Positions 4,182-58,527 of a stretch of 64,000 bases of DNA are shown here, piece by piece; the stretch's first letter is position 1, and the number at the start of each line of letters is the position of its first letter. The notes beneath the pieces were generated by a model. The model made no database searches. It was not told the origin of the DNA and saw nothing but the letters and a program-made list of their open reading frames with translations. The DNA lies in assembly GCA_032128115.1 (NCBI GenBank), contig JAQBHB010000041.1, positions 27,753-91,752 of the forward strand. The letters run 5' to 3'. The stretch comes from Deltaproteobacteria bacterium (lineage in GTDB: Bacteria; Myxococcota_A; UBA9160; SMWR01). The position numbers and the translations under genes were made by a program.

Positions 4182-4233
4182 GGGCGGAACCTACCCCGAT
4201 CCACCCTGCTGAGCCCGCACCTGGAAGTGAAAC

Positions 4234-4712: not shown

Positions 4713-4773
4713 CGGAAAAGACTTCACCTCTGCTAGCGTCCGGCCGCCAAATGAGCGGAACCCCCCCTGTTCC

Positions 4774-5298: not shown

Positions 5299-5365
5299 GG
5301 CATCTGGACGACCAGAGCATCTGGACGGCTAGAGCGTCTGGACGACTAGAGCATCTGGGAGACTG
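5298..5365. repeat. 17-bp x4 tandem repeat (GAGCATCTGGACGRCTA) between convergent genes
   Basis: The four units are gggcatctggacgacca, gagcatctggacggcta, gagcgtctggacgacta and gagcatctgggagactg. The array begins at the last base of the TAG stop (5296-98). Confidence 0.9.
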
Positions 5366-5390
5366 GGGTTCCGGGCCCGCCCGGGCCGGA

Positions 5391-24779: not shown

Positions 24780-25553
24780 CAGGTTGGAGAAGTCCGGCTT
24801 TCGCTTCTCGAAGAAGGCGCGGATGGCCTCCACGTTCTCGGGCGAGCCCACCCGCACCCGGAAACCGTCGTCCTCGCGTGCACGGGCGGCGCGCACCGCC
24901 TCGAGCCGGGGCTCGAGCATCAACTGCTTGGTGTGGCGCAGGGATCCCAGGGGGTGCTCTGCGATTCGGGCCGCGAGACCCCGCAGGGCCGGCAGCAACT
25001 CTTCCGGAGGCAGCTCGCGAGCGGCCAGTCCCGTGGCCACCGCCCGACTCGAGTCCACCCAGTCGGCCGTGAAGAAGATTTCGGCCGCGTTCTGCCAACC
25101 CACCATGTGGGGAAGAAGCAGGCTGCTCGCCGCCTCCGGCACCACTCCCAGCGACACGAAGGGCACCTTCAGACGCGCGCCCACCGCGATGTAGACGATG
25201 TCGCAGTGCAGCAGGATCGTGAGGCCGAAGCCCACGCCCACGCCGTTCACCGCCGCCAACAGTGGCTTGTCGAAGGCGATCAGGTCGTCGATGCAGGAGG
25301 CGAACGGGTGATCGGTGTCTCCGCCCCCACCCGGCGGCGCCGACATCTCTCCCAGATCCTGGCCCGCGGTGAAGGCCCCGGGCGAGCCGGTCACGATCAC
25401 GACCCGCACGTCGTCGTCCTTCTTCGCGTCGGCCATGGCGTCTCGCAGCTCGCGCCACTGTTGGCTGTTAAAGGCGTTCCGCGCCTCGGGCCGGTTGAAG
25501 ATCAGGGTGCGGACCCCGTTGTCGGTCTCCTCGAGAATGGTCTCCCGCTTCAC
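24774..25553 (-). CDS. Enoyl-CoA hydratase/isomerase (crotonase) family protein
   Basis: The GTG at 25553 overlaps the upstream stop (GTGA). Crotonase-like sequence includes RTLIFNRPEARNAFN, VRVVIVTGSPGAFTAGQDL and AAVNGVGVGFGLT. Confidence 0.85.
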   Translation of the reverse strand: MKRETILEETDNGVRTLIFNRPEARNAFNSQQWRELRDAMADAKKDDDVRVVIVTGSPGAFTAGQDLGEMSAPPGGGGDTDHPFASCIDDLIAFDKPLLAAVNGVGVGFGLTILLHCDIVYIAVGARLKVPFVSLGVVPEAASSLLLPHMVGWQNAAEIFFTADWVDSSRAVATGLAARELPPEELLPALRGLAARIAEHPLGSLRHTKQLMLEPRLEAVRAARAREDDGFRVRVGSPENVEAIRAFFEKRKPDFSNLA

Positions 25554-26875
25554 GATGCATCTCCCTTGCGATTCAATTCCGCCGAAACACTCTCTCGCAC
25601 GATCGCGAGCAATGCCTCCAGGTCGTCGTCGGGAATGTTGAGAGAAGGCGCCACGTAGACCACGTTGCCAAGCGGACGCAGGTAGGCGCCGCGCCGGCGC
25701 GCCTCTTCGTACACGCGCCACCCCGCCCGATCCAGGTAGCCGGAGTCGCCAGCCAGGTCCAGGGCGCCGATCATCCCCAGCGAACGCGCGGACGCAACGC
25801 CTGGCATCTCGCCCATCTCGTGAAATGCTCGAGCGATTCGTTCGGCCTTGGGTTTCGCACGCTCTAGAACCTGTTCATCCTCGTAGACCCGAAGCACCTC
25901 GAGTGCCACGGCGGCGCCCAGCGGGTGGCCGCAGAAGGTGTGCCCGTAGTAGAAGGCGCGATCCTCGTCGCCGGTGAAGCCCTCGAAGACTCGCGGCGTC
26001 GCGAGGGTCGCGGCCATCGGCAGCATGCCGGCGGTGAAGCCCTTGGCGATGCACAACACGTCCGGCGAGACACCGGCGTGATCGCAGCCCCACATGGGGC
26101 CCGTGCGCCCGTAGCCCGTGGCCACCTCGTCGAAGACCAGGAGCACGTCGAAGCGATCGCAGAGATCTCGAGCGAAGCGCAGATAGGCCGGGTCGTAGAA
26201 ACGCATGCCCGATGCGCCCTGCACCACGGGTTCCAGCACCAGCGCCGCCAGCGTGTCGGCGTGGGCGCAAAGGGTCTGCTCCAGGGCGTCGACACAGGCC
26301 TGCAGGCTTCCCGGCTCCCGGGGCGGAGGCACGTGCTCGGCGCCTGGCACCGCCCCGGCGAACGGCCGGCGGAAGAGTTCCACACCCCCCAGGGCCGTTG
26401 CGCCCAGGGTCTCGCCGTGGAATGCCTCCTCCAGCGATACGAACCGGGTGCGCTCGGGCCTGCCGTTCTGGTGCCAGAACTGGAGGGCCAGCTTCATGGC
26501 CACCTCGACGGCGGTGGAGCCGTCGTCGCTGTAGAAGACGTGCTCGAGGCCGTCGGGTGCGACCTGGCAGATTGCCTCGGCCAGGTCGGCAGCGGGAGCG
26601 TGGGTGATGCCGCCCAGGGCCGTATGACACAACGTCTGCGACTGGCGCCGCAACGCTTCCAGCAGCCGCGGGTGACCGTGACCCAGCGCGCTCGACCACC
26701 ACGACGCGTTGGCGTCGATGTAGCTGCGGCCCTCCACGTCGAACAGGCGCGACCCCTGGGCGCGAGCAACCACCAGCGGCTCCGTGTGGGCCCGGTAGTT
26801 CGCCATCTCCGTATACGGGTGCCACACCCGACGTTTGTCGAGTGCGACGATGCGGTCGCGCTCCCGGGCCAGCAA
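25550..26875 (-). CDS. bioA: Adenosylmethionine-8-amino-7-oxononanoate aminotransferase-like class III aminotransferase
   Basis: BioA-like hallmarks are VWHPYTEM, SWWSSALGHGHP, YSDDGSTAVEVAMK and DEVATGYGRTGPMWGCDHAGVSPDVLCIAKGFTAG. Confidence 0.8.
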   Translation of the reverse strand: MLARERDRIVALDKRRVWHPYTEMANYRAHTEPLVVARAQGSRLFDVEGRSYIDANASWWSSALGHGHPRLLEALRRQSQTLCHTALGGITHAPAADLAEAICQVAPDGLEHVFYSDDGSTAVEVAMKLALQFWHQNGRPERTRFVSLEEAFHGETLGATALGGVELFRRPFAGAVPGAEHVPPPREPGSLQACVDALEQTLCAHADTLAALVLEPVVQGASGMRFYDPAYLRFARDLCDRFDVLLVFDEVATGYGRTGPMWGCDHAGVSPDVLCIAKGFTAGMLPMAATLATPRVFEGFTGDEDRAFYYGHTFCGHPLGAAVALEVLRVYEDEQVLERAKPKAERIARAFHEMGEMPGVASARSLGMIGALDLAGDSGYLDRAGWRVYEEARRRGAYLRPLGNVVYVAPSLNIPDDDLEALLAIVRESVSAELNRKGDAS

Positions 26876-26878: not shown

Positions 26879-27907
26879 CTACAGGGCCAGCTCGGCCAAC
26901 AGGCGCAGCACCTCCGGCTGTCCGGCTCCCACCAGCAGCGAGCCGGTGGGCGATGCTTTCCAGGCCTGGAAGCGTTCGGCGATGCGCTCGGCGGGTCCCA
27001 CCAGGGCGACATCGTCCACCAGCGCGTTGGGCACCGCCGCCATGGCCTCGCCCTTCTTCCCGTCCAGGTAGAGATCCTGGATCTCCACGGCTGCGTCCTC
27101 GTAACCGAGCCGCTTGGCGTAGTCGTTGTAGAAGTTGCGACCGCGGGCGCCCATGCCGCCGATGTAGAGGGCCATCATCCCCTTGATGGGCATGCGGCAC
27201 TTTTCCAGGTCGTCGCCCAGGATGGCAGTGGTGAAGGGCGCCAGGTCGAAATCGGCCATGCTCTTGGCGCCGCCTGCCTTCCGGAAACCCTCTTCCAGGT
27301 GCGAGACGATGAGCTCCGGCTTCTCCGGGTTCATCCACAGCGGGAACACGCCGTCGGCTACCTCGCCGGCACAGGCCAGGCCCGCCGGACTGATGGCCGC
27401 GGTATAGATCTTCAGATCCCGGCGTCCGTGCAGGATGCTCTTGAGCGGCTTGCCGAGACCAGTGGCGTCGTCTCCGAAGTAGGGAATCTGATAGTGCAGG
27501 CCCTTGTGCTCCAGCGGCGCCTCGCGGGCCAGGACCTGGCGGACGATCTGCACGTACTCGCGGGTGCGGGTGAGGGGCTTGCCGTACGGCACGCCGTACC
27601 AACCCTCCACCACCTGGGGGCCCGAGGGTCCGAGGCCCAGGCGGAAGCGCCCGCCGGACAGGGCATCCAGCGTCATCGCCGTCATGGCGGTCATGGCCGG
27701 GCTGCGGGCCGGCATCTGCATGATGGCCGTGCCGATCCCGATGCGACTGGTACGGGCCGCGATGTAGGCGGCCGGCGTGGCGGCGTCGTTTCCGTAGGCT
27801 TCGGCCGTCCACACGGAGTCGAAGCCCAGCTTCTCGGCTTCGAGGATCAGATCCAGGTTGAGGGTCATCTTCGGGCCGAACTGGCCCGCCAGGAGTCCGA
27901 GGCGCAT
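26879..27907 (-). CDS. LLM class (F420-dependent-type) oxidoreductase
   Basis: LLM-like sequence includes [23 protein letters not shown] and [21 protein letters not shown]. It ends 3 nt before the bioA-like start. Confidence 0.8.
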
Positions 27908-33430: not shown

Positions 33431-33482
33431 TTCAGCCCAGACGTTCAGCCCAGTCATTCAGCCCAGACATTCAGCCCAGACG
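33431..33482. repeat. 13-bp x4 tandem repeat (TTCAGCCCAGACR)
   Basis: The four units are ttcagcccagacg, ttcagcccagtca, ttcagcccagaca and ttcagcccagacg. The array spans the stop of the upstream minus-strand gene (33471-73) and the region 5' of the MTH1187-like gene. Confidence 0.9.
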
Positions 33483-34901
33483 GCGGCGCACCGCCACCGG
33501 GTCGCGCACCCGGGCCGCAAGGTCCGCCACGGGTTGCCCGAGTATTGGATGCACGAACGCCGCAGCAATTTCACACAGCGGCTCCAACACGAAGGCGCGC
33601 TCGTGCAGGCGCGGGTGTGGCACCTGGAGGCCCGGCTCGTCGATCTTCTGGCCCGCGTAGAAGAGCACGTCCAGGTCCAGGGTGCGCGCCGTGTTGCGCT
33701 GGCCCCCCGGGGTGCGCCCGGCATCCGACTCGATCTGCTGGAGTCGGTCCAGCAGCGCCCGCGCCGACAACCGGCAGCGCAGCTTCGCCGCCGCGTTCAG
33801 ATAGGGCCCCTGGGGCGGTGGGCCCACCGGATCGGTCTCGTAAACGGGTGACACCGCCTCCACCCACACGCCCCGGGTGCGACCCAGGGCCGCCAGGGCG
33901 CGCACCAGATGCCCCTCCCGGTCGCCCAGGTTCGAGCCCAGCGATACGTAGGCCGGCTCGCCTTCGATTCCGCCCGCGCTGCGCTGTTGCAGCCGATCGC
34001 CGCAGAACGATGCGATGGCTGCGTTGAACCGGATCGCCGCCTCCCACTGCAGGAAGTGACCGGCGCCGCTCAGCTGGAAGGGCCCGACCCGGTCGGGGAA
34101 GACCACCTCGGCCATGCGCTCGAAGTCGGGAGGAATCACGTGATCCTCGGGCCCGTAGAGGATGAGCGCCGGCGTGGGATTCTCGCGCCAGAAGGGCCGC
34201 GCCACCCGGGCGTGCGCCGAGAGCACGCTCTCGTAGGTGCAAAGGCTCGCGCGAAAGTGGTGGGCGTCGGCGAAGGGTTCGCTGAGGAAATCCACCGCGT
34301 CGGGCTCGAACGCGCCCGGATGCGCCCAGTGTCGTTTGGTGTAGAAGTCCGCCACCCAGTGCTTGCGGCGCTCCGGTGTGTCGAGCTCTGCGGCCAGACC
34401 GTCCGCATCGGTTCCCGCGCGCAGGAAATAGTCGAGCCGCTCGCGGGGCGGTCGCGTGACGAGACCCTGCATGCGCTCTTTCAAGAAGGGAAGCGGAGCG
34501 TTGAAGATCACGAGCCTCTCGACGAAACCCGGGAATCGCAGCGAGAGATCCTGGATCACGGCGCCACCCAGATCGCCGCCCACCGCCACCACTGAATCGA
34601 GCCCCAGATGCTCGTGCACCAGGGCGTACAGGTCGCGGCTGTGGGACACCACGTCGTGGAACCCGTCCGGCCCCACCTGGCTGTCTCCGAAACCCCGGAG
34701 ATCGGGAGCGATCACGTGGAAGCCAGCGGCCGCCAGCGGCGCGGCGTTGCGCCACCAGATACGCCGGGTCTCGGGCCAGCCGTGCACGAGCAACAGGGGA
34801 ACGCCGCCCCGGCCCTCGGACAGGAAGGCCTGGTCGAAGCCGCGCGGGCGCGCCCGCTCCACGCGGAAGCGATCCGGGGACAGGGGGGTCGGCTCGCTCA
34901 C
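33471..34901 (-). CDS. folK: Alpha/beta hydrolase (epoxide-hydrolase-like) fused to 6-hydroxymethyl-7,8-dihydropterin pyrophosphokinase (HPPK)
   Basis: The N-terminal part is hydrolase-like (LLLVHGWPETRRIWWRNAAPLAAAGFHVIAPDLRGFGDS). The C-terminal part is HPPK (AYVSLGSNLGDREGHL, RTLDLDVLFY, VPHPRLHERAFVLEPL). Both are in one frame with no stop. No ATG/GTG/TTG occurs in the ~12 codons before the HPPK core. The start was set to GTG at 34901. Confidence 0.7.
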   Translation of the reverse strand: MSEPTPLSPDRFRVERARPRGFDQAFLSEGRGGVPLLLVHGWPETRRIWWRNAAPLAAAGFHVIAPDLRGFGDSQVGPDGFHDVVSHSRDLYALVHEHLGLDSVVAVGGDLGGAVIQDLSLRFPGFVERLVIFNAPLPFLKERMQGLVTRPPRERLDYFLRAGTDADGLAAELDTPERRKHWVADFYTKRHWAHPGAFEPDAVDFLSEPFADAHHFRASLCTYESVLSAHARVARPFWRENPTPALILYGPEDHVIPPDFERMAEVVFPDRVGPFQLSGAGHFLQWEAAIRFNAAIASFCGDRLQQRSAGGIEGEPAYVSLGSNLGDREGHLVRALAALGRTRGVWVEAVSPVYETDPVGPPPQGPYLNAAAKLRCRLSARALLDRLQQIESDAGRTPGGQRNTARTLDLDVLFYAGQKIDEPGLQVPHPRLHERAFVLEPLCEIAAAFVHPILGQPVADLAARVRDPVAVRRRLG

Positions 34902-34932
34902 CGGGTCGATCTTACAGCTACAATCCCGTGCC

Positions 34933-36207
34933 GTGCCGGCGATTCCCTCCCTCGCCCCTGCGTTGCTTACCCCCGTTCCGGGGCCGCGCTCGACTGCACT
35001 GGCGCAACGGCTGGCACGTGTGGAGAGCCGCAATGTCACGTGTCTTCACCCGGTGCCCCTCTTCTGGGAGCGCGCCGCCGGGGCCAACGTCTGGGACGTG
35101 GATGGCAACCGCTTCGTGGATCTCACGGCGGGCTTCGGCGTCGCCAATGCGGGACACGCACACCCGCGTGTGGTGGACGCGATTCACGAACAGTCGGAGC
35201 GAATGCTCCACGCCATGGGCGACGTGCACCCAGCGGCCGTGAAGGTGGAACTGCTGGAAGCGCTGACCCGCCGCTTTCCCGGCGGCGGCGACTGCCGGGC
35301 CGTGCTGGGATCGTCGGGCTCCGACGCGGTGGAGGTCGCGCTCAAGACCGCCCTGCTCGCGACAGGGCGCCCGGGGGTGGTGGCCTTCGAGGGCGCCTAC
35401 CACGGGCTCAGCCTGGGCGCGCTGGACACCACCTGGCGCGGCGCGTTTCGCGAGCCCTTCCGTCTGCGCCTGCCGGGCGCAACGGTCTTCGCGCGTTTCG
35501 GTGACGCCGGGGATGCCCTTCGGGCCGCAGAGTCCCTCGAGCATCCAGTGGGCGCCGTGCTCGTGGAGCCGATCCAGGGCCGGGGAGGCGATCGCATCCC
35601 CCCCCCAGGTTTCCTCTCCGAGCTGCGGAGCCTGTGTGACGACCGGAGCTGGCTGCTGATCGTGGACGAAGTCTACACCGGCTTCGGTCGCACGGGCCGC
35701 TGGTTCGCGTGCGAGCACGAGGGCGTGGTTCCCGACCTGCTGTGCGTGGGCAAGGGGCTCGCTTCAGGGATGCCGTTGTCCGCCACCCTGGGACGGGCCG
35801 AGCTGATGGATGCCTGGCCCGCCTCGGACGGCGAAGCCCTCCACACCCAGACCTTCCTGGGTCATCCGCCGGGCTGTGCCGCTGCACTGGCGTCGATCGC
35901 GGCCCTCGAAGAAGAAAAGCTCGTGGAACGCGCCGCCGAGAACGGGGCCACGGCCCTGGCACAGCTGCAGTCGGGGCTTTCGGGGGCGCCCGGCGTCGAA
36001 GACGTGCGGGGCCTGGGGCTGCTGCTGGCGGTGGAATGCGACAGCGCCGAGCGCGTGAACCGCGCCGTCGCGGCCGCCATGCGCCGCGGCGTCATTGCGC
36101 TGCCGTCGGGAGACGACGGCCGCGTCGTTTCGATCACGCCGCCCCTGTGCGTCGAGTCCGAGATCCTGAGCCTCGCCCTCGGCGTACTCTGCGAGTGTCT
36201 GCAATGA
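34933..36207 (+). CDS. Class III pyridoxal-phosphate aminotransferase (GABA/ornithine-AT-like)
   Basis: GTG at 34933, in frame within ORF 34456..36207. Family-like sequence includes [36 protein letters not shown] and [35 protein letters not shown]. Confidence 0.85.
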
Positions 36208-37298
36208 ACGCTCGCCGGGAGATCGAACGGGAGCTGCTGGCCTGGACCCGGGAACCTGGATGGCATGCGGATGAGGATCGCTTCCAGCGGCTGGCCCTCG
36301 CGCTCTTCGCGCACCAATTCGAGCACTGCGAGCCGTACCGGCGCTTCTGCCAGGGGCGCGGCTACACGCCAGATCGGCTGGATTCGTGGCGTGAGATCCC
36401 GGCGGTGCCCACCGGCGCCTTCAAGCAGATGGAGCTGGTCTCGTTTCCCCGCGAGCGCACCCGCCACACGTTTCGTACCAGCGGAACGTCCACGTCCCAG
36501 CGTGGCGCGCTCCACCTGGACACCCTCTTGCCGTACGAGGCCTCGCTTCTGGCGTCGTTTCGCCGCTTCGTGCTGCCCGATCTGGTGAAGGGAGATCGTG
36601 CCCGATTGCTCGTGCTCGCGCCCTCGGCAAGCGAGCTGCCCGACTCATCGCTGTCCCACATGTTCGCTGTGGTGATCCGGGAGCTGGGTACACCCGAGAG
36701 CAGCTTCTATCTCGAACGCGAACGCCTGGATGCGGACCGGCTGCTCGCGGATCTCGAGGCGGCCGCGGCGGGTGCCGCGCCCGTGGCCGTGTGCGGCACT
36801 GCCTTCGCGTTCGTCCACTTGATGGACGAGATGTCCCGGCGCGGCGTGTCGTTTGCGCTCCCGGAATCGGCCCGCGCCATGGAGACGGGTGGCTTCAAGG
36901 GACGCTCGCGACGGGTGACGAACAGCGAGCTCTACGACCAGATCGAGGCGCGCCTGGGCATCCCGGCAGCGCGGGTGGTGAACCAGTACGGGATGACCGA
37001 GCTGGGCAGCCAGTTCTACGACTCGGTGCTGCGGCATCCGGACGAGCCGCGGAGAAAGCTCGCGCCGCCGTGGACCCGCGTCCGCATCGTCGACCCGGAG
37101 ACGGGGAAGACAACGAGCGGCGACGGATCGATCCGGCTGTTCGATCTGGCCAACACGGGAAGCGTTCTCGCCCTGCACACCGCGGACCTGGGGCGAGTCG
37201 CGTCGGACGGCTTCCACGTGATCGGCCGCGAACCGGGCGCAGAGGCGCGGGGGTGCTCCATCGCCGTGGACGAGTTCCTGGCCGGAAGCCCGGCGTGA
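36204..37298 (+). CDS. LuxE-family acyl-protein synthetase (acyl-adenylate-forming)
   Basis: The start overlaps the upstream stop (ATGA). LuxE-like sequence includes FQRLALALFAHQFEHCEPYRRFC, IPAVPTGAFK, FRTSGTS, ETGGFKGR and NQYGMTE. Confidence 0.75.
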   Translation: MNARREIERELLAWTREPGWHADEDRFQRLALALFAHQFEHCEPYRRFCQGRGYTPDRLDSWREIPAVPTGAFKQMELVSFPRERTRHTFRTSGTSTSQRGALHLDTLLPYEASLLASFRRFVLPDLVKGDRARLLVLAPSASELPDSSLSHMFAVVIRELGTPESSFYLERERLDADRLLADLEAAAAGAAPVAVCGTAFAFVHLMDEMSRRGVSFALPESARAMETGGFKGRSRRVTNSELYDQIEARLGIPAARVVNQYGMTELGSQFYDSVLRHPDEPRRKLAPPWTRVRIVDPETGKTTSGDGSIRLFDLANTGSVLALHTADLGRVASDGFHVIGREPGAEARGCSIAVDEFLAGSPA

Positions 37299-38578
37299 GC
37301 GCCGACACCCTTCGCGGCCGACTGGCAGCGCTTCGCGAGGCCGGCGCCGTGCTGCGGCGGCGGCCGGCCGTCGAGACGATCGCGGTGCTGGCCCGGGTGA
37401 TCGACAGCTGGTCCAATCCCGATTCCCCGTGGCGTCGCGCCCTGAACGCCCAGTTCCCAGTCGCCACGGGCTTCTCCGAGGCGGCGGTGCGCGAGGGGGC
37501 GCAGGTGGGATTCGGGGCGTGGAGCGGGGCCGCGTTGCACCAACTGGTGAAGCGCGAGCTGGGCGGCGCCGAGCGTCTCGACTCGGCCGCTTCGCGCATG
37601 GCGGTGCCCCCGGAGACGACAGCCGTGGTGCTTGCGGGGCAGGTGCCCATGCCCACGTTGCTCTCGATCCTGTTGCCCCTGGCGCTGCGTTCACCGGTGC
37701 TGGCCAGGCAGGGATCGCGCGACCCGGTAACCGCGGCATTGGTGGCACGTTCGGTTTCGGAAACCGATCCGGAGATCGGCGCCTGCCTGGACGTGGTCTC
37801 GTTCCCGAGCTCCGACACGGCCCAGCTGGACGCGCTGCTGGAAGCCGACTGCGTGGTGGCCACCGGCTCCGACGAGACCACGGCGACCCTTGCCGCGCGC
37901 GTGCGTCCTCCCCGCCGCGTTCTACGCCACGGGCATCGCCTCTCGGTAGCCGCACTCGGGCCCGAGGCCACGGGCGGCGGCGAGCTCGAGCGCGCCGCCG
38001 CGGGACTGGCGCTCGACATCTCGTTGTGGGACCAACTCGGCTGCCTGTCGCCGATCGCCGTGTACGTGGCCGACCCTGACGACGAGGCCGTCGATCGCGT
38101 GGCCCGGGCGCTCGCCGAAGCACTGGCGTCGAGCGAGGCACGGCTCCCACGAGGGTGCATCGATCCGGTGGCCTCGGCCGCCATCGCCCACGAGCGCGCC
38201 GAGGCGGAGATGCGCGCCGCCGCGGGCCGAGACGTGACGGTCCACGCCAGCACGGGCAGCGCGTGGACGGTGGTGCGGGAGGATGTCTCCACGCCGCTTC
38301 CGGCCCCGCTCCACCGCTTCGTCCGCGTCCAACCCGTGGCGGACGAGCACGCGCTTCTCGAAGCGCTGCGCCCGCTGGGCTCGCACCTGGCGGGCGTCGC
38401 CATACAGGGCTTCGGCACCGGAACGCCCGGCCTGATTCGCGCGTTGGCCGAGGCTGGCGCCTCGCGGGTCTGCGCCCCCGGCAAGCTGCAGGCCCCACCC
38501 CTGTCGTGGCGGCGCGAGGGTCGCGGCGTACTGACACCCCTGGTGCGCTTCGCCGATCTGGAGACGCCCCTGCGTTAA
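37295..38578 (+). CDS. LuxC-family acyl-CoA (acyl-protein) reductase
   Basis: The start overlaps the upstream stop (GTGA). LuxC-like sequence includes VVLAGQVPMPTLLSILLPLALRSPVLARQGSRDP, DCVVATGSDETTATL and WDQLGCLSP. Confidence 0.7.
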   Translation: MSADTLRGRLAALREAGAVLRRRPAVETIAVLARVIDSWSNPDSPWRRALNAQFPVATGFSEAAVREGAQVGFGAWSGAALHQLVKRELGGAERLDSAASRMAVPPETTAVVLAGQVPMPTLLSILLPLALRSPVLARQGSRDPVTAALVARSVSETDPEIGACLDVVSFPSSDTAQLDALLEADCVVATGSDETTATLAARVRPPRRVLRHGHRLSVAALGPEATGGGELERAAAGLALDISLWDQLGCLSPIAVYVADPDDEAVDRVARALAEALASSEARLPRGCIDPVASAAIAHERAEAEMRAAAGRDVTVHASTGSAWTVVREDVSTPLPAPLHRFVRVQPVADEHALLEALRPLGSHLAGVAIQGFGTGTPGLIRALAEAGASRVCAPGKLQAPPLSWRREGRGVLTPLVRFADLETPLR

Positions 38579-38636
38579 ACCCCGCGAATTCACCGGACCT
38601 CCCACCGGCGGCGGCGCCCGGGTACAATGGAACGGG

Positions 38637-40196
38637 ATGGGGGGCGCACCTGCGCAAGAAAGCGGAGCGGCCTTGAAGATCCATCTGATCACTCCCCGGA
38701 ATCCCGCCAGCTTCTGGACCTACGACGAGATCCTGCCCACGCTCGAGAAGGACTGCATCTTCCCCAATCTGTCGATGCCCACGGTTGCCGGGCTCACCTC
38801 GCGCGAACACACAGTGACTCTGTGCGACGAGAACGTGGAGGACATCGACTTCGACGTGGACGCGGACATCGTCGGGGTCACCGGATACATCATCCACAAG
38901 CCGCGCATGCTGGAGATCCTCGCCGAGTGCCGAAGGCGCGGGCGCTTCGTGGTGGTGGGCGGACCCTATGCGTCCCTCTGCCCGGAGGAGCTGCGCGAGC
39001 ACTGCGATGTGTTGTTCCTCGACGAGGCCGAGGAAACCTGGAGCCGCTTTCTCGAGGACTTCCAGACCGGCGCCTGGAAGACCGAATATCGCCCGACCGA
39101 GAAGCCGGACATGACAACGTCCCCCATGCCGCGATTCGACCTGCTGAAGGTCGACCGCTATCACGCTCTCACCATCCAGTTCGCCCGGGGCTGCCCGTTC
39201 AACTGCGAGTTCTGCGACATCATCGTGATCTACGGGCGCCGACCGCGCGCCAAGAGCGTCGAGCAGTTGATGGCGGAGATCCGCGAGTGCCACCGCCTGG
39301 GAGCCACGCAGGTGTTCGTGGTGGACGACAACTTCATCGGCGACAAGAAGCTTGCCAAGGAGGTGTTGCGGGAGATCGCGCGCTGGGGGCGCGAGAACGG
39401 CTATCCGATCGATTTCAACAGCGAGGTGTCCCTGAACGTGGCCCAGGACGAGGAACTCCTCGGTCTGATGCGCGACGCCAACTTCACCACCCTGTTCATC
39501 GGGATCGAGAGCCCCAGGGCCGAGTCGCTCCTGGAGACCCGGAAGACCCAGAACATGCGGGGTGACCTGGTGGAAAGCATCCGCACGATCCACGAATACG
39601 GCATCCAGGTGCAGGCCGGGATGATCGTGGGCTTCGACCACGACGATGCCTCCATCTTCGAGGAGCAGCTGCGCTTCATCCAGGAAGCGCGAATTCCCGT
39701 CTCCATGACCGGTATGCTGCAGGCCCTCCCCAAGACACCCCTCTACGAGCGAGTGGAGAAGGAAGGGCGCCTGCTGAGCGCGAGCCAGGGCGACCAGTTC
39801 GCGCTCTCGAACATCCGCCCCGAGCGCATGAGCCGGCGGGAACTCTACCTGGGATACCGATGGCTCGTGGAGCAGCTATACGATTTCCGAAACTACGAGG
39901 ACCGTACCCTGGCGTTCCTGATGAACCGGGGATCCCAGATCAACCGGGGCCTCAACATCCGGCGCCGCGACCCGATCCGATTGCTCAAGATCCTGTGGCA
40001 GACCCTCGTACTCGGCGGGCGGAAGCGCGCATGGTTCACACTCTCGTTGCTTGGCACCATCCTGGTGCGCCGACCCTCCGTCTTCAAGGAGGCGGTCTCG
40101 TTCGCCATCAGCCACCGCGCGTTCTACGACTACATGGCGAAGCTGACCGTGCAGCTCGACCGGGCAGTCCAAGAGATCGACGCCGAGTCGAGATGA
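38637..40196 (+). CDS. B12-binding-domain radical SAM protein with a DUF4070-like C-terminal region
   Basis: An N-terminal Rossmann-like B12-binding segment (IVGVTGYIIHKPRMLEILAECRRRGRFVVVGGPYAS) precedes the radical SAM CxxxCxxC motif (GCPFNCEFCD) and a helical C-terminal extension. Confidence 0.85.
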   Translation: MGGAPAQESGAALKIHLITPRNPASFWTYDEILPTLEKDCIFPNLSMPTVAGLTSREHTVTLCDENVEDIDFDVDADIVGVTGYIIHKPRMLEILAECRRRGRFVVVGGPYASLCPEELREHCDVLFLDEAEETWSRFLEDFQTGAWKTEYRPTEKPDMTTSPMPRFDLLKVDRYHALTIQFARGCPFNCEFCDIIVIYGRRPRAKSVEQLMAEIRECHRLGATQVFVVDDNFIGDKKLAKEVLREIARWGRENGYPIDFNSEVSLNVAQDEELLGLMRDANFTTLFIGIESPRAESLLETRKTQNMRGDLVESIRTIHEYGIQVQAGMIVGFDHDDASIFEEQLRFIQEARIPVSMTGMLQALPKTPLYERVEKEGRLLSASQGDQFALSNIRPERMSRRELYLGYRWLVEQLYDFRNYEDRTLAFLMNRGSQINRGLNIRRRDPIRLLKILWQTLVLGGRKRAWFTLSLLGTILVRRPSVFKEAVSFAISHRAFYDYMAKLTVQLDRAVQEIDAESR

Positions 40197-40212
40197 GCGA
40201 GAGCTGGGGAGC

Positions 40213-40299
40213 GGGGACGGGGTTGACTATTGACTTTTTCAGGGCGACGAGAGTGACACCGACGCGGTGGCGAAAAAGTCAATAGTCAACCCCGTCCCC
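40213..40299. repeat. Perfect 28-bp-arm inverted repeat (87-nt hairpin) between convergent genes; candidate bidirectional terminator or REP/MITE-like element
   Basis: Left arm GGGGACGGGGTTGACTATTGACTTTTTC (40213-40240), then a 31-nt loop, then its exact reverse complement (40272-40299). The arms are AT-rich relative to the surroundings, and each contains TTGACT twice. Confidence 0.85.
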
Positions 40300-40302
40300 G
40301 TC

Positions 40303-41541
40303 CTAGACACGAAGTTCGACGCGGGTGGTTCCCAACGCGAAGCGCCGGAAGCCGATGCCGAACGGAATCCGGAACAGCCCCGTCCGGGCCAGGAACGGGA
40401 GTACGCGACGCACCAGGAATCGACTTGCCGGCGTTTTCTGGAACAGGAAGCGCGGCGGCGCCGCGCCTTGAAGGCGCTGGATGGTCTTCACCTCGGGCAG
40501 GCGCTCGTCGCGAACGGCGCGAGCGGCGGCGTCCAGGGCTTCGGGCCCGGCGCCGTTGGCCAGCGGTCCGCAAAGGTGGTTGGCCGCCACCAGAGCATCT
40601 CGCAGGGCGATGTTGATGCCCTGGGCGCCAACGGGTGACATGGGGTGACACGCGTCGCCGAGCAGGAGCAGGCCCGGCTCGCTCCACTCGTCCAGGTGAT
40701 CGCACACCACGTCCAGCAGGAAGGGGTGGTGGATCCGGGCGCGGTTCGCACGCAGATGCGCGCCCAGATCCGGGGAGACGAGATCTGCCAGCTGGTCGAG
40801 CCATCCCTCGACGCCCTGGCGGCGCAGCTCGCCGAAGCTCCCCTTCTCGATGATCCAGGCAATCTGGAGCTCGCCGTCGGGAGCCTGGAACATCAGGCAG
40901 AAGTGACCAGAGCCCAGATAGACGCGTCCCTGCTGCATCCCATCGAGAGCTTCGGGAATCGGAACCTTGAACCACACCACGTCGAACGGTTCCACCCGCT
41001 CCATCCGATCCAGGCTCGAATGCTTGCGAACTGCGGAGGCCCGCCCGTCGGTGGCGATCACGAAGTCGGCGCGCACCTCCGCCGGGCTGCCGCCGGAATC
41101 GCCGCGCACCCCACAGGCGCGTCCGTTCTCCCGCAACACGTCGCGCACCGTGAAGCCCCGCTCCAGGCGGAACGACGGAAACTTCCCGGACTCGGCGACC
41201 AGCATCTCCAACAGTGCCGGCTGGGAGACGAAGACCGGGCCCTGGGGCGAACCGTCGTCGGGTCGGAAGTCGAAACGAGCCACGCATTCGCGATCCTGGT
41301 AGATCTGGAAGCGCAACACGTGGGATTGGGGCAGTGCGTCCAGTGCCGCGCCCAACCCCATCTGCCGGATGGCGTCCACACCACTGGGCATCAGTCCCTC
41401 GCCGCGGAACTCGCGCGCGAAGTCGGTGTGGCGCTCCAGCAGGACGATCTCGACGCCGCGCCGGGCCAGCAGGTAGGCGAGGGCGGCGCCGGCCGGGCCG
41501 GCGCCCACGATTGCCGCGCGCACCGGACCGGCGGACCCCAC
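40303..41541 (-). CDS. FAD-dependent aromatic-ring monooxygenase (UbiH/PHBH-like)
   Basis: Motifs AAIVGAGPAGAALAYLLARRGVEIVLLERH, DGRASAVR and LLGDACHPMSPVGAQGINIALRDA. The start is GTG at 41541, 5 nt after the GST stop, or alternatively 41523. Confidence 0.85.
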   Translation of the reverse strand: MGSAGPVRAAIVGAGPAGAALAYLLARRGVEIVLLERHTDFAREFRGEGLMPSGVDAIRQMGLGAALDALPQSHVLRFQIYQDRECVARFDFRPDDGSPQGPVFVSQPALLEMLVAESGKFPSFRLERGFTVRDVLRENGRACGVRGDSGGSPAEVRADFVIATDGRASAVRKHSSLDRMERVEPFDVVWFKVPIPEALDGMQQGRVYLGSGHFCLMFQAPDGELQIAWIIEKGSFGELRRQGVEGWLDQLADLVSPDLGAHLRANRARIHHPFLLDVVCDHLDEWSEPGLLLLGDACHPMSPVGAQGINIALRDALVAANHLCGPLANGAGPEALDAAARAVRDERLPEVKTIQRLQGAAPPRFLFQKTPASRFLVRRVLPFLARTGLFRIPFGIGFRRFALGTTRVELRV

Positions 41542-48716: not shown

Positions 48717-50171
48717 CTAGCGAAGGAGCGAGTCGCCGAGCAGGCCCGCAGTGGTCAGGACGGCGAAGCCGACTCCGAAAGCGAGGGTCTCGTGCGCCAC
48801 GCGCGCGTCGATCCGCCGCATGGTGAAGATCGACAGGGCCACGGCCGCGACGATCCACGCGTTCAGGAAGAAACGCGCGGCGAAGCCCATCGACACGCCC
48901 GCCGTTTCCCACTGCACGCCGGCCGTCACCGCCAGCAGTAAGGCGGCCAGCAGGAATCCCAGGCGCAGCGCCAACGGGATCTTGCGCCAGGTCCGTGCCA
49001 ACGCCCCAGGCTCGCGTGGCGGCGACTCCTCTCGCTGCGCCTGCTCCAACACCTCGCCAGGCGTTTCGGAGTCGGCGCCACCCTCTGCGAAAGGCCCCAG
49101 TCGCCGGCGCGCCAGCTCGGCCGTGGCGAGATCCTGGAACTCGTCGTTGTCGGCCATCACCAGATCCACCATGCCTACGTAGCCGTAGGGCAGGAGCGGG
49201 GCCTCCTCGACCACGCGCAGCTGGTGGAAGGCGCGCGCTGGCCAGGCGTGGTGATCGGCGTGACGGGTGAGGCCGATGAGTCCGTAGTAGGTGGTCCAGG
49301 CGTGGGTGTCCCAGGAGTCGGCGTGGCGGACCCGCGGACCCCGGCGGACCAACCCCCAGTGCTCGAAGTAGTTGACGGCCTCGAGCAATCTCACCGCGGT
49401 GAAGGCCTGGAGCACGAAGGCGAAGAGCGCAGCGCCGCCGAACGCCAGGAAGACCACCGCGGCCAGCCCCCACTCGACCGCCAGACCGTGCAGCACGCGG
49501 TTCCCGAGCGTTCGCCGGTCCCAGAGCTTCATGTCGGGGTCGCCGAGGCGCTTCGCCTCGAGCCGCCACGCACTGCGAAACTGGCTCGGGACGGTGCGAC
49601 GAAAGAAGGCCTCGTAGGCCTCGCCGAAGCGAGCACTCGCCGGATCGTCCGGGGTACCCACACGCACGTGGTGTCCGCGCAGGTGCTCGGTGAAGAAATG
49701 CTCGTAGAGGACGCTGCAAAGCAGAAGCCGCCCGAGCCGCTGCTCCCAGGGCTTGCGACGATGAATGAGCTCGTGGGCGGTGACGATCGAGAAGCCCGAG
49801 CTCGAGCCGATCACGAGAAAGACCATCACCATGTCCACGGAGAAGATCCCCTGGACCGAGAAGAACCGGACCAGCTCGAAGACGACCAGGAACTGGAGGC
49901 CGGCGAGGGCGTAGACCAGCAGATCGAACGGCCAGGCGGGAAGCGATTCGGGGGGCTGCCGGCGCTCGGCTCTCGCTGCACAGTCGAGCTGGTGAACCGC
50001 GACCAGGGGCAGCATGAAGAGGGCCGCGATGTACCAGGGATGGGGCCCCGTCCACAGGAAGGCGAGCGAGAGGCCGGGGAAGAACAGCGAGACCAGGTGG
50101 CGGAGCCAGAGGCCCGCCACGGCTCGCGAGTCGCTCTCGATCTCTTCGGCGGGAGCTGTCGGAGAGGTCAT
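48717..50171 (-). CDS. alkB: AlkB-like integral-membrane alkane 1-monooxygenase / fatty-acid-desaturase-family hydroxylase with an extra C-terminal TM region
   Basis: All four AlkB motifs are present: HELIHR, EHLRGHH, NYFEHWGL, LTRHADHHA. A ~130-aa C-terminal extension carries about 3 further hydrophobic helices. Confidence 0.8.
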   Translation of the reverse strand: MTSPTAPAEEIESDSRAVAGLWLRHLVSLFFPGLSLAFLWTGPHPWYIAALFMLPLVAVHQLDCAARAERRQPPESLPAWPFDLLVYALAGLQFLVVFELVRFFSVQGIFSVDMVMVFLVIGSSSGFSIVTAHELIHRRKPWEQRLGRLLLCSVLYEHFFTEHLRGHHVRVGTPDDPASARFGEAYEAFFRRTVPSQFRSAWRLEAKRLGDPDMKLWDRRTLGNRVLHGLAVEWGLAAVVFLAFGGAALFAFVLQAFTAVRLLEAVNYFEHWGLVRRGPRVRHADSWDTHAWTTYYGLIGLTRHADHHAWPARAFHQLRVVEEAPLLPYGYVGMVDLVMADNDEFQDLATAELARRRLGPFAEGGADSETPGEVLEQAQREESPPREPGALARTWRKIPLALRLGFLLAALLLAVTAGVQWETAGVSMGFAARFFLNAWIVAAVALSIFTMRRIDARVAHETLAFGVGFAVLTTAGLLGDSLLR

Positions 50172-50549: not shown

Positions 50550-51377
50550 GTGTTCCGCGTTGGCGTCGGCCTCCTGGTTGCATCCCTCGGAATCCACATG
50601 GTTGCCTGGAACTGGCTCGCGGGGAAGGTGATCTTCCAGCCCACGTCCGGCATCGACCTCCGCCCCGAGATGCTGGGAATCGACGGCGACGAGGTGTTCC
50701 TCACCAGTGAGGACGGCACCCGGCTCCACGGGTTCTTCGTGGCATCTCCCGCCGCCACCCGCGCCATCCTGTTCCTGCACGGCAACGCCGGCAACGCCTC
50801 CCACCGGCTTCCCAATGCGGCGGAGCTTGCGAAGCTGGGCGCGGCCGTGCTGGTGCCGGACTACCGGGGTTACGGAATGAGCGAGGGCACGCCCAGCGAA
50901 GCCGGCTGCTACGCCGACGCCAGGGCCGCATTGGAGGATCTCGTTGGACGCGGCTTCCCGGAGAACCGCATCGTGCTGTTCGGCCGATCCCTGGGCGCCG
51001 CCGTCGCCGTCGACCTGGCCCAGGACCGGGAGATCGCCGGAGTCATCCTGGAGAGCACCTTCACGTCGGCGGCGGACGTGGCGCGGCGGGCCTTCGGAGC
51101 CCCCATGGCGCTTCTGCTGCGCGGCGTGCTGGCGTCGGACTCGAAGATCGAACGGGTGCGCGCGCCGCTGTTGTTCTTTCACGGCGATCGCGATCGCGTG
51201 ATCGACTTCGAGCTCGGACGGGCACTGTTCGACAGCGCCCCCGAACCCAAGAGCTTCGAGACAATCGCCGGCGCGGGACACAATGACACCACCCACGTGG
51301 GCGGACACGCCTACTTCGAACGGATCCGGCGCTTCCTGGACCAGGTGGCGCCGGAGATTCCGGAGGCCACTCCATGA
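50550..51377 (+). CDS. Alpha/beta hydrolase (BEM46/ABHD-like)
   Basis: Only the C-terminal ~275 aa of ORF 49224..51377 looks real. GTG at 50550 precedes a TM helix, then ILFLHGNAGN, the nucleophile elbow GRSLGAA, and FFHGDRDRVI...GHND. Confidence 0.75.
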   Translation: MFRVGVGLLVASLGIHMVAWNWLAGKVIFQPTSGIDLRPEMLGIDGDEVFLTSEDGTRLHGFFVASPAATRAILFLHGNAGNASHRLPNAAELAKLGAAVLVPDYRGYGMSEGTPSEAGCYADARAALEDLVGRGFPENRIVLFGRSLGAAVAVDLAQDREIAGVILESTFTSAADVARRAFGAPMALLLRGVLASDSKIERVRAPLLFFHGDRDRVIDFELGRALFDSAPEPKSFETIAGAGHNDTTHVGGHAYFERIRRFLDQVAPEIPEATP

Positions 51378-52387
51378 CGCGACTCCCCGCCGAGGACGGC
51401 TTTTCCATGCCGGCCGAATGGGAGCCGCACCGGCGTTGCTGGATGGTCTGGCCGTGCCAGCCCGATACCTTCTCCGATCTGGAGGCGGCGCGGGGCGACT
51501 ACGTGGGGGTGGCGCAGGCGATTGCACGCTTCGAACCCACCGCCATGGTCGCTACCCCCGACGACACGGACGATGCGCGCCGCCGCTGTGGTGACGGTAT
51601 CGACGTCGTCACCCTCTACACCGAGGACTCCTGGGTGCGCGACACCGGCCCCACCTTCCTGGTGGACGGACGCGGGAATCTGGCCGGCATCGACTGGCCC
51701 TTCAACGGCTATGGAGAACTCTACGCCGAATACCAGGAGGACGCGGCGCTGGCCGCGCGCATGCTTGCGCACGAGAAGCTGCGCCGTTTCGAGGGCCCGA
51801 TCCACCTGGAAGGAGGCGCCATCCACACGGACGGGCAGGGGACGCTGCTCACCACGGAGAGCGTGGTGTTGAACCCGAACCGAAACCCGGGCCTCACACG
51901 CAAAGAGGCCGACGAGATCTTCCGGGCCTTCCTGGGCATTTCGAAGGTGATCTGGCTGGAGGCGGCCCTGGAGTTCGACGACACCGGCGGCCACATCGAC
52001 AACCTGGCCTGCTTCGTGCGACCCGGCGTGGTGGCCGCACTCAGCGAGGTGGACCCGGAGGATTCCCAGTACGAAGGACTTCGGAACAACCTGCAGCATC
52101 TTCGCGCGGCCACGGACGCCTCGGGGCGTCCTCTCGAGATCCTGGAAATCCAGCAGCCCCCGCGCCAGGACTTCGACGGCCACCGGCTGGCCCTGTCGTA
52201 CATCAACCACTACATCGCCAACGGCGGCGTGGTCTACCCGGCCTACGGGGTGCCGGCGGACGAGGAGGCCCGGGAGGCGCTCCAGAAGGCCTATCCGGAT
52301 CGCGAGATCGTGGCGGCCCCCTCCCAGGAGGTCATCAAGGGAGGCGGATCGGTACACTGCATCACACAGCAGGAGCCGCTGCCGTAG
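51374..52387 (+). CDS. aguA: Agmatine deiminase
   Basis: The start overlaps the upstream stop (ATGA). Motifs are MPAEWEPH, DSWVRDTGPTF and the C-terminal GGSVHCITQQEP. Confidence 0.9.
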   Translation: MTRLPAEDGFSMPAEWEPHRRCWMVWPCQPDTFSDLEAARGDYVGVAQAIARFEPTAMVATPDDTDDARRRCGDGIDVVTLYTEDSWVRDTGPTFLVDGRGNLAGIDWPFNGYGELYAEYQEDAALAARMLAHEKLRRFEGPIHLEGGAIHTDGQGTLLTTESVVLNPNRNPGLTRKEADEIFRAFLGISKVIWLEAALEFDDTGGHIDNLACFVRPGVVAALSEVDPEDSQYEGLRNNLQHLRAATDASGRPLEILEIQQPPRQDFDGHRLALSYINHYIANGGVVYPAYGVPADEEAREALQKAYPDREIVAAPSQEVIKGGGSVHCITQQEPLP

Positions 52388-52427
52388 TGACGGGCAGGGC
52401 ACTCGCGGACCGCGGAGAGGGGCGAGC

Positions 52428-53300
52428 ATGAGAAAGGTCACCGTTGCGGCAACCCAGATGGCGTGCAGCTGGGATACGGACGCCAACGTCGAGCGCGCCA
52501 TGGACCTGGTGCGCGAGGCGGCGGGCCGGGGCGCGAACATCATCTTGATCCAGGAACTCTTCGAGACCCCGTACTTTCCGGCCGAAGAGAAGCCCGAGCA
52601 TTTCTCGCTGGCGCGCCCCGTGGAGAACCACCCCACTCTCGCGAAGATGGCCGAGTTGGCGCGAGAGCTCGAAGTGGTTCTGCCCGTGAGTTTCTTCGAG
52701 CGCGCGGGAAACGCCTACTTCAATGCGGTGGCCATCGTGGATGCGGACGGCTCGACCCTGGGCGTCTATCGCAAGAGTCACATCCCGGACGGCCCGGGCT
52801 ACGAGGAAAAATACTACTTCACCCCGGGAAACACGGGCTTCAAGGTCTGGAATACCCGCTACGCCAGAATTGGAGTTGCCGTCTGCTGGGACCAGTGGTT
52901 CCCCGAGTGCGCGCGGGCCATGGCCCTGCAGGATGCGGAGATCTTCTTCTACCCCACCGCCATCGGCGACGAGCCGTTCGACGATTTCGACTCCAAGGCC
53001 GCGTGGCAGCATGTCATGCAGGGACACGCGGCGGCCAACGTGGTGCCGGTGATCGCCTCCAACCGGATCGGCGCCGAGAAGTCGAACTCCCACACGCTCA
53101 CGTTCTACGGATCATCGTTCATCGCGGACGGATCCGGGAATCTGGTGGAGGAGGCGGGCCGCGAGGAGCAGGCGGTGCTCACCCATACCTTCGATCTGGA
53201 TGCGCTGCGGGAGAACCGGTCCTCCTCGGGATTCTTCCGGGACCGTCGGACCGACCTGTACCGCTCGCTCCTGACGATGGATGGCCAGACACCTCGCTAG
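52428..53300 (+). CDS. aguB: N-carbamoylputrescine amidase (nitrilase superfamily)
   Basis: Motifs are VAATQMACSWD, LIQELFETPYF, YRKSHIPDGPGYEEKYYFTPG and the catalytic Cys context GVAVCWDQWFPE. Confidence 0.9.
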   Translation: MRKVTVAATQMACSWDTDANVERAMDLVREAAGRGANIILIQELFETPYFPAEEKPEHFSLARPVENHPTLAKMAELARELEVVLPVSFFERAGNAYFNAVAIVDADGSTLGVYRKSHIPDGPGYEEKYYFTPGNTGFKVWNTRYARIGVAVCWDQWFPECARAMALQDAEIFFYPTAIGDEPFDDFDSKAAWQHVMQGHAAANVVPVIASNRIGAEKSNSHTLTFYGSSFIADGSGNLVEEAGREEQAVLTHTFDLDALRENRSSSGFFRDRRTDLYRSLLTMDGQTPR

Positions 53301-53321: not shown

Positions 53322-53359
53322 CACAGGGCTGCGCTCACCCCACAGGGCTGCGCTCACCC
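53322..53359. repeat. 19-bp x2 perfect tandem duplication spanning the yqeC-like stop codon
   Basis: CACAGGGCTGCGCTCACCC occurs twice in direct succession. The second copy contains the TCA stop (53354-56) of the minus-strand gene. Confidence 0.9.
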
Positions 53360-54127
53360 GCGTGTGCACCACTCCCAGAAGCCCCGATCCGGGTCGGCGG
53401 GCCGCAGGGCCCCGATGACCACGCGCTCCACCCGGGGTTCGCGAAGAACGAGACGCGCCACTTCGTGCGCGGTCTCCCGCTGGGATTCGGACTCCACCTT
53501 GTTGAGAAGCAACGCCACGCGTGCATTCGGGGGGGCGCTCTTGAGACCGCCCCGGGGCGAGGTGAGGAGAACGGCCAGCGCCTCGGGGGTGAGGGTGCGA
53601 TCCGCTCCGAGACCGGTGATGGACGCCACGCGCTCGGGCCGGTGGGCTACCTGGTCGATGGGTGCCGACAGGGCGTCGATGCCCGCCACCAGCACCACCA
53701 GGCTCGCCTCCGCGGGAATCACCGGCTCGTGGTCGCCCGGGGCCTTCACGGGCCGCATGCGCGAGCCGTCGGACTCCACCAGCACCCAGGCGACCCGCGG
53801 GTGAGACAGCCACTGTGCCGGAAGCTCCCGCGAAACCCCCACGGCGCGCTCGCCCTCCACGTGGCCCACCACCAGAAGCTGGGATTCCAGTTCGTCCAGG
53901 CGATTGCGCCATCCCGGCTCGTCCAGGCTGCAGGCCGCGTCCGCCAGCTCCATCTGTGTGGCGAAGATGCGCGTGGTGGTAGTGACCACCACTCCGCCGC
54001 CGAGTTCCCGAGCCAGCGCGAACAGGAGACTCGTCTTGCCTCCGCCGCCCACGATGGCCACCAGCTGCTGTGGGCGATCGAGTCCCAACGCAGCGCAGAC
54101 GCGGTCGGCCCTCGAGACTTCGAGCAC
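53354..54127 (-). CDS. yqeC: YqeC-like P-loop accessory protein (family linked to selenium-dependent molybdenum hydroxylases)
   Basis: The QLVAIVGGGGKTSLLFALA P-loop is followed by VVTTTTRIFA, a pattern I recall as YqeC-specific. 257 aa. Confidence 0.65.
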   Translation of the reverse strand: MLEVSRADRVCAALGLDRPQQLVAIVGGGGKTSLLFALARELGGGVVVTTTTRIFATQMELADAACSLDEPGWRNRLDELESQLLVVGHVEGERAVGVSRELPAQWLSHPRVAWVLVESDGSRMRPVKAPGDHEPVIPAEASLVVLVAGIDALSAPIDQVAHRPERVASITGLGADRTLTPEALAVLLTSPRGGLKSAPPNARVALLLNKVESESQRETAHEVARLVLREPRVERVVIGALRPADPDRGFWEWCTRG

Positions 54128-54140
54128 GAGAGGTTCGCGC

Positions 54141-56923: not shown

Positions 56924-56927
<4 letters not shown>
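54141..56927 (-). CDS. fdhA: Formate dehydrogenase catalytic (alpha) subunit, NAD-linked type with a NuoG-like N-terminus; cysteine variant
   Basis: 928 aa. N-terminal 2Fe-2S/4Fe-4S cysteine clusters (CHDPGLEPVGVCRMCVVEV; CILCDRCIRAC; CVSCGECVAACP; CPYCGVGC) precede a Mo-bisPGD domain. The active-site context HCTRLCHASSV has Cys where selenoenzymes carry Sec. Confidence 0.9.
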
Positions 56928-58492
<1,565 letters not shown>

Positions 58493-58527
58493 GCGGCCTG
58501 GGGCTCCCGGGCCCGGATTATACGTCC

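Follow-up and report, generated by a model that had tools for sequence, protein, structure and literature searches.

To our knowledge, no enzyme of the LuxC-LuxE type has been characterised other than LuxC-LuxE itself, which is known only from bioluminescence. The cryo-electron microscopy structure of the Photobacterium phosphoreum proteins (PDB 7XC6) assigned Lys238 and Arg355 of LuxE to adenylation and Cys364, which lies in the flexible C-terminal motif TRxxKGCxLS, to carriage of the acyl group; Cys296 of LuxC is both acyl acceptor and catalytic residue, in a protein whose 40 Å hydrophobic cleft is closed by the C-terminal segment P460-P488 (PMC9157457). Outside lux operons, our literature search found LuxC/LuxE homologues only in the flagellin glycosylation islands of non-luminous Aeromonas and Enterobacteriaceae, where they are uncharacterised and accompanied by an acyl carrier protein (ACP), FabG, an AMP-ligase and glycosyltransferases (PMC7874193, PMC4875605). 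Here we analyse a 64-kb window (the whole stretch of DNA under study; G+C ~68%) of the Deltaproteobacteria bacterium contig JAQBHB010000041.1, in which genes for a class III aminotransferase (AT), a LuxE-like protein and a LuxC-like protein are followed by a gene for a B12-binding radical SAM protein (rSAM). On balance, and with modest confidence, we favour the reading that the first three genes (the triad) form a translationally coupled module predicted to convert a carboxylic acid to a primary amine, with rSAM lying outside it.

The chemistry proposed here, from acid to aldehyde to amine, is also that of engineered cascades in which a carboxylic acid reductase (CAR) is combined with a transaminase. 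Among natural systems, PigE and TamH, which are thioester reductase-aminotransferase fusions, share with the triad both the course from acyl thioester through aldehyde to amine and the use of a class III transaminase. TabE, a LuxC-like acyl-thioester reductase of the aldehyde dehydrogenase (ALDH) superfamily, makes dodecylamine together with the omega-transaminase TabA in the biosynthesis of tambjamine BE-18591 (bioRxiv 10.1101/2025.08.11.669332). All of these enzymes are encoded in gene clusters for pigments and draw their acyl groups from ACP or CoA, whereas a LuxE-type self-acylating activator would supply the thioester to the triad, which has no linked carrier protein or condensing enzyme and is chromosomal, core and found across phyla. 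None of the companions of LuxC/LuxE in the flagellin islands is present here, and a literature search for an AT-LuxE-LuxC module found no paper describing such a gene combination.

Gene organisation of the locus

Direct translation and a gene call based on codon-position G+C recovered four open, co-directional genes across 34933-40196 (Table 1), bearing out the originally predicted layout of ATGA and GTGA overlaps between the first three genes and a 58-nt gap before the fourth; profile searches likewise returned every Pfam family that had been named for the four products. Orthologue alignments favour the long AT start, as VPGPRS is conserved upstream of the alternative start, and the overlapping LuxC-like start, as L13, R14, A16 and G17 are invariant. 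The public call for the LuxC-like protein is 409 aa, 18 codons shorter at the start (37295 vs 37349), and that for rSAM is 507 aa, 12 codons shorter (38637 vs 38673). A scan of 34700-40500 returned no promoter-like site and one terminator-like site, on the wrong strand.

Table 1. Coordinates of the triad, its junctions and associated genes within the 64-kb window.
Feature	Coordinates	Strand	Remarks
Class III pyridoxal-phosphate aminotransferase (AT)	34933..36207	+	First gene of the triad; Pfam Aminotran_3
ATGA overlap, AT stop / LuxE-like ATG start	36204..36207	+	Translational coupling
LuxE-family adenylating acyl-protein synthetase	36204..37298	+	Pfam LuxE, conserved residues
GTGA overlap, LuxE-like stop / LuxC-like GTG start	37295..37298	+	
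LuxC-family acyl-thioester reductase, ALDH fold	37295..38578	+	Pfam LuxC, C250, structural model
B12-binding-domain / radical SAM / DUF4070 protein (rSAM)	38637..40196	+	Facultative neighbour; alternative start 38673
Alpha/beta-hydrolase fused to FolK (HPPK)	33471..34901	-	Divergent, syntenic, outside the module
Luciferase-like monooxygenase (LLM)-class oxidoreductase	16775-17644	+	Passes NCBIfam F420-dependent subfamily cutoff
LLM-class oxidoreductase	26879-27907	-	Passes NCBIfam F420-dependent subfamily cutoff

Conservation of the triad

One genome per species was scanned with an alignment of LuxE-like relatives, and at least 598 genomes hold such relatives; the best 80 loci were then used for locus comparisons, by tblastn of the window proteins against them. 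All 80 come from Myxococcota-type metagenome-assembled genomes (MAGs), with LuxE-like identities of 52-69%, and wherever a locus has room, the LuxE-like gene has AT directly before it and the LuxC-like gene directly after it. The sequence allows a 4-nt start/stop overlap between AT and LuxE in 71 of 80 loci and between LuxE and LuxC in 56 of 72, frequencies that place the gene arrangement far beyond chance. Throughout the Myxococcota clade the triad is embedded in a syntenic block, with genes for a GAF histidine kinase, an FAA hydrolase, PAPS reductase, a thiamine-binding protein and FolK on one side and Rrf2-sufBCD on the other, and it thus belongs to the core chromosome rather than to a mobile biosynthetic cluster. 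We considered whether the divergent folK, PAPS reductase or the suf operon is functionally linked to the triad, and rejected this, since the synteny is found only inside this clade.

A search of 1.84 billion cluster representatives for LuxE-like proteins returned 3,284 at E ≤ 1e-3, of which 832 reach E ≤ 1e-30, and the LuxE-like contexts that we describe outside the Myxococcota set come from distant members, at 35-46% identity. Two further lineages, one represented by an Omnitrophota MAG (L085) and the other by L086, show the AT|LuxE|LuxC order, written here as AT-LuxE-LuxC, and an AT-LuxE fusion (P0209) is followed by LuxC (L087/L088); five other proteins (P0149, P0161, P0162, P0229 and P0243) are LuxE-LuxC fusions. 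The original prediction had envisaged a conserved block of four genes, and this stood in part: the AT-LuxE-LuxC block is kept across genomes and phyla but the fourth gene is not, so that the conserved unit is three genes.

Two sister variants have another enzyme in place of AT. In one, an AdhP/Ahr-like zinc alcohol dehydrogenase is fused to LuxE, with LuxC next; in the other (L095), a beta-hydroxyacid-dehydrogenase-like gene stands upstream of LuxE-LuxC. Replacement of AT by an aldehyde-reducing enzyme points to a free aldehyde intermediate. As the neighbourhoods of the other-phylum triads share nothing further with the window, LuxE-LuxC appears to behave as a portable carboxylate-reductase module, the aldehyde product of which would be passed to a lineage-specific partner, a transaminase in this branch. 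The numbers of clusters and of species-level genomes given above suggest that LuxE-LuxC works as a modular carboxylic acid reductase of wide distribution. In one large branch it is hard-wired to a predicted dedicated transaminase, which would make a testable acid-to-amine route independent of CoA and carrier proteins.

The L095 pair (276-5543; 37% identity) is preceded, besides the dehydrogenase-like gene, by genes for a HAD hydrolase and an O-methyltransferase. A small radical SAM gene upstream of the L086 triad proved to be QueE and unrelated.

The LuxE-like and LuxC-like proteins

The LuxE-like protein matches Pfam LuxE (PF04443) at 69.2 bits (cutoff 24.9, E 4.1e-19) over profile positions 35-388 of 391, and scores 54.7 bits on the luminescence LuxE equivalog NF052244, for which the cutoff is 550. 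Chain E of the LuxC-LuxE structure (7xc6_E) matches it at 3.4e-12, with K232 aligned to LuxE K238, and R342 precedes C351 by nine residues, the same spacing as from R355 to C364 in LuxE; C351 is carried by a C-terminal RGCSIA motif. Conservation of K232, R342 and C351 among LuxE-like orthologues is 84/84, 84/84 and 83/84, respectively. As judged by alignment, the predicted adenylation Lys/Arg and acyl-carrier Cys of LuxE are retained.

For the LuxC-like protein, the match to Pfam LuxC (PF05893) reaches 191.8 bits (cutoff 21, E 2.3e-56), and the score on the luminescence LuxC equivalog NF052251 is 70.6 bits against a cutoff of 750. C250 (WDQLGCLSP) aligns to the LuxC active-site Cys (YDQQACFS) and is invariant in 71 of 71 sequences. 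An AlphaFold model (predicted local distance difference test, pLDDT, 91.9) has LuxC itself (7xc6_A) as its top Foldseek match, with E 1.2e-22 and a TM-score of 0.79, compared with E-values of ~1e-14 for other ALDHs. The protein has 427 aa and ends 10 residues past the Pfam domain; it matches the NCBIfam LuxC model up to position 386 of 478, and the Foldseek alignment covers 420 columns of a 477-residue target.

Together, the two proteins share with P. phosphoreum LuxC-LuxE the Pfam families, the two-protein logic, the adjacency and coupling of the genes, the adenylation Lys/Arg, the carrier Cys motif [K/R]GCx[L/I][S/A] and the catalytic Cys of the reductase. They differ in that identity is ~21%, luxA, luxB and luxD are lacking, the LuxC-like protein is ~60 aa shorter, and the aldehyde would go to a transaminase here rather than to a luciferase.

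The aminotransferase

AT matches Pfam Aminotran_3 (PF00202) at 335 bits (E 5.9e-100), and its pyridoxal-phosphate-binding Lys (CVGKGLASG) is present in 80/80 orthologues. Whole-protein searches of the PDB and NCBIfam rank GabT, PatA and acetylornithine aminotransferases at the top, and AT reaches no NCBIfam equivalog cutoff, the best score being that on the acetylornithine aminotransferase family (310 vs 552), with 308 vs 639 for GabT and 249 vs 612 for PatA; on the PigE model it scores 256 bits. When the catalytic core was searched against the PDB, E. coli PatA/YgjG (4UOX) was the closest solved relative (137 bits over 158 residues), with an HG-x-SLGAL motif in common, and PigE (4ppm) was second.

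Three positions distinguish AT from these relatives. Leu or Val follows YHG in all 80 orthologues, a position held by Lys in PatA (after FHG) and by Arg in the mycobacterial GabT 4ffc; an Arg in EPIQG-R-GG occupies the place of a Glu in both PatA (QGEGG) and 4ffc; and Ser, Ala or Gly is found at the site of the C-terminal substrate-binding Arg of GabT. This signature is kept in 80/80 Myxococcota orthologues, and the AT of the Omnitrophota MAG, of L086 and of the AT-LuxE fusion has it too. It argues against a distal carboxylate on the substrate, the distal part of which is probably hydrophobic.

The original prediction would have been undermined had AT grouped with housekeeping ArgD/GabT enzymes. 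The unreached equivalog cutoffs, the altered signature and the coupling and fusion to LuxE are instead those of a predicted dedicated class III subfamily, not of housekeeping ArgD/GabT. A second class III gene in the window (25550-26875) was considered as a paralogue of AT and rejected, as it is BioA (484 vs 405).

Proposed pathway

The acid-to-aldehyde-to-amine logic put forward in the original prediction is backed by the catalytic residues, by the universal synteny, by the AT-LuxE and LuxE-LuxC fusions and by the variants in which an alcohol dehydrogenase replaces AT. In the pathway that we propose, the LuxE-like enzyme would adenylate a carboxylic acid and take up the acyl group in thioester linkage at its own C-terminal Cys351; its flexible tail would then deliver this group to Cys250 in the LuxC-like reductase, which would reduce it with NAD(P)H to the free aldehyde; and AT would turn this aldehyde into a primary amine at the expense of an amino-acid donor. 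PatA and PigE act on substrates without a carboxylate. Given a PatA/PigE-like core that lacks the arginines for a distal carboxylate, the acid is most likely monocarboxylic and hydrophobic, so that an aliphatic or aryl-aliphatic monocarboxylic acid would be the most likely substrate and an alkylamine-type compound the product. What the analysis shows is the family membership, the catalytic residues, the synteny and the fusions; pathway direction, substrate class and product are predicted.

Several points weigh against this reading. Since the identity of both Lux-like proteins to true LuxC/LuxE is so low and their equivalog scores lie far under the cutoffs, the substrate class cannot be transferred from LuxC/LuxE; the LuxC-like protein is also shorter, probably lacking the P460-P488-type segment that closes the cleft for C14 chains, and thus, while a fatty substrate is plausible, one of C14 does not follow from homology. 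The L095 variant hints that some family members handle small semialdehydes. Our interpretation of the Arg-to-Leu and Glu-to-Arg changes in AT leans on what we take to be the roles of GabT Arg141, Glu211 and Arg398, on which a literature check found nothing usable. Finally, no gene to make, export or use an alkylamine is consistently linked to the triad at the compared loci, and the setting of the module, a syntenic block of housekeeping genes, is odd for a surfactant-like product.

A broader interpretation can be offered tentatively. AT-LuxE-LuxC may be an unrecognised, self-contained carboxylate-to-amine pathway that is part of core metabolism in several phyla of uncultured bacteria, Myxococcota and Omnitrophota among them, in which the amine, a primary alkylamine or some other amine without a carboxylate, might be an envelope or membrane constituent or a polyamine-like metabolite, the LuxE tail would replace CoA or ACP, and the AT subfamily would have a relocated substrate-binding Arg. 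Should the acid-to-amine route be borne out, uncultured bacteria would gain a new natural origin for primary amines, biocatalysis a compact set of three enzymes for turning acids into amines, and the aminotransferases a new specificity class.

Alternative readings and the radical SAM gene

It is unlikely, in our estimate, that the triad is instead a polyamine or diamine route, in which an omega-amino acid (GABA, 5-aminovalerate or beta-alanine) would be converted through an amino-aldehyde to a diamine by a PatA-type reaction run in reverse. Although the AT core is most similar to PatA, the Lys and Glu of PatA are replaced by Leu and Arg throughout the AT subfamily, and although the module acts like a housekeeping set in a conserved chromosomal block, adenylated omega-amino acids readily lactamise, amino-aldehydes cyclise, and the window already encodes an agmatine deiminase and an N-carbamoylputrescine amidase for putrescine. 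Linkage to a polyamine gene is confined to one locus, L086, where a deoxyhypusine/homospermidine-synthase-like gene (3781-4893) lies ~1.8 kb upstream of the triad.

The original prediction treated all four genes as one operon, in which a fatty acid would become a long-chain amine or amino-lipid and rSAM would methylate or rearrange the same molecule; we now consider this quite improbable. The rSAM gene is indeed co-directional and follows after 58 nt that are free of terminator-like sites, and its adjacency to LuxC recurs in 19 of the 60 informative loci, with spacings from an apparent overlap of ≤36 nt to 195 nt. It is missing from that position, however, in the other 41, where the triad is usually followed by Rrf2-suf, by an F420-type LLM oxidoreductase or by an NAD-epimerase-like gene; at L034 three opposite-strand genes separate it from the triad, and it is not next to the triads of Omnitrophota and other lineages (L085-L088). 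Conversely, rSAM orthologues at 72-75% identity from another Myxococcota lineage and from a Candidatus Binatia MAG have no AT, LuxE or LuxC nearby. The claim that rSAM is an integral fourth member of the operon thus fails, and rSAM is probably an independently conserved gene that occupies a site of variable gene content separating the triad from the Rrf2-suf operon. Its homologues, at 72-82% identity, are much more conserved than LuxE (52-69%) and LuxC (40-63%), which suggests a different and more constrained substrate. With the operon model corrected in this way, the conserved radical SAM protein needs a separate explanation.

The placing of rSAM among radical SAM proteins with a B12-binding domain held up, whereas the methylase role attributed to it is less secure. 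Pfam searches returned Radical_SAM (1.2e-18), DUF4070 (2.3e-18; 67 bits vs 22) and a B12-binding domain at 32.1 bits, which is exactly the Pfam cutoff, and the CxxxCxxC motif (C186/C190/C193) is invariant among orthologues. The resulting architecture, with an N-terminal B12-binding domain, a domain of the radical SAM type and a DUF4070 tail, is HpnP-like; that it is common to the hopanoid lipid methylase HpnP and HpnP-like myxobacterial proteins is a further point in favour of lipid tailoring within a four-gene operon. The protein nonetheless lies far under the NCBIfam equivalog cutoffs (PhpK 85 vs 600, HpnR 69 vs 650, MJ_0865 74 vs 360), and while, by sequence, the MCR glutamine C-methyltransferase 9CCB is the closest solved relative, the top fold match of its model (pLDDT 85) is AprD4, ahead of MgmA/QCMT, OxsB, TsrM, CysS and TokK. 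AprD4 is a diol dehydratase, not a methylase, and as the best structural match it leaves a methylase role for rSAM unassured. In sum, rSAM shares architecture, CxxxCxxC motif and fold class with HpnP-like proteins, AprD4, MgmA/QCMT, TsrM and OxsB, and differs from these and other B12-domain radical SAM enzymes in falling below every equivalog cutoff and in its loose linkage to the triad.

The Binatia orthologue (L091, 8001-9542) is near genes for a VTT-domain protein, a ferredoxin, two FabH-like KAS III enzymes, an acetyltransferase and UvrD, and that of the other Myxococcota lineage (L092, 8001-9593) adjoins DprE1/DprE2-like genes and a UbiA prenyltransferase gene. These lipid and isoprenoid neighbours may hint at the real substrate of rSAM.

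That AT is an ordinary ArgD/GabT-like enzyme, or the set a catabolic one running from amine through aldehyde to acid with the Lux-like genes as mere neighbours, is very improbable: GabT and acetylornithine aminotransferases do head the whole-protein matches, and the locus does lie among housekeeping genes, but AT reaches no equivalog cutoff, its carboxylate-binding Arg positions are substituted in 80/80 orthologues, an AT-LuxE fusion exists, the 4-nt overlaps are conserved across phyla, and catabolic oxidation has no use for an ATP-consuming, adenylating protein whose acyl-carrier Cys is intact.

Neighbouring genes and other features of the window

The divergent neighbour starts 31 bp from AT and carries Pfam Abhydrolase_1 and HPPK domains, scoring 130 vs 54 on NCBIfam folK. 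Its alpha/beta-hydrolase domain had been likened to the LuxD acyltransferase; the domain and its position are as described, but it is fused to FolK, and because relatives carry FolK alone (166-316 aa), the fusion being lineage-specific, it is not a LuxD analogue. In other phyla (L085-L088), the FolK gene is not next to the triad.

No luxA, luxB or luxD was found within the 64-kb window, in keeping with the earlier observation that it holds no luciferase: the genes of the Bac_luciferase superfamily in the window prove to be F420-dependent LLM-class oxidoreductases, belonging to TIGR03619 and TIGR03559 and lying 7-20 kb from the triad. A 291-aa LLM gene that follows LuxC in L003, L009, L025 and L026 belongs to TIGR03560, and the window copy is 28% identical to that of L003. 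As all of these genes are F420-type, a hidden luxAB was rejected. F420-type enzymes in Myxococcota MAGs may merit attention.

The two putrescine genes, for agmatine deiminase and N-carbamoylputrescine amidase, are at 51374-53300 (+), ~11 kb from the triad, and a gene of the fatty-acid desaturase family next to them (48717-50120) matches nothing in NCBIfam. Elsewhere in the window, two overlapping open reading frames at 7327-8745 (+) and 8742-9401 (+), of 472 and 219 aa, have a strong coding signal and no Pfam match. A 1176-aa STAND-like protein (11176-14706, +) combines zinc ribbons, an adenylate/guanylate cyclase domain, AAA_16 and TPR, and a 1017-aa HEAT-repeat protein (17672-20725, +) ends in a cNMP-binding domain. 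The genes at 53354-59157 (-) look like a set for a soluble, NAD-linked complex of the formate-dehydrogenase type and for maturation of its cofactor, and include a 928-aa molybdopterin oxidoreductase with a NuoG-like Fe-S N-terminus, a 522-aa NuoE/NuoF-like fusion, YqeC and a MobA-like protein.

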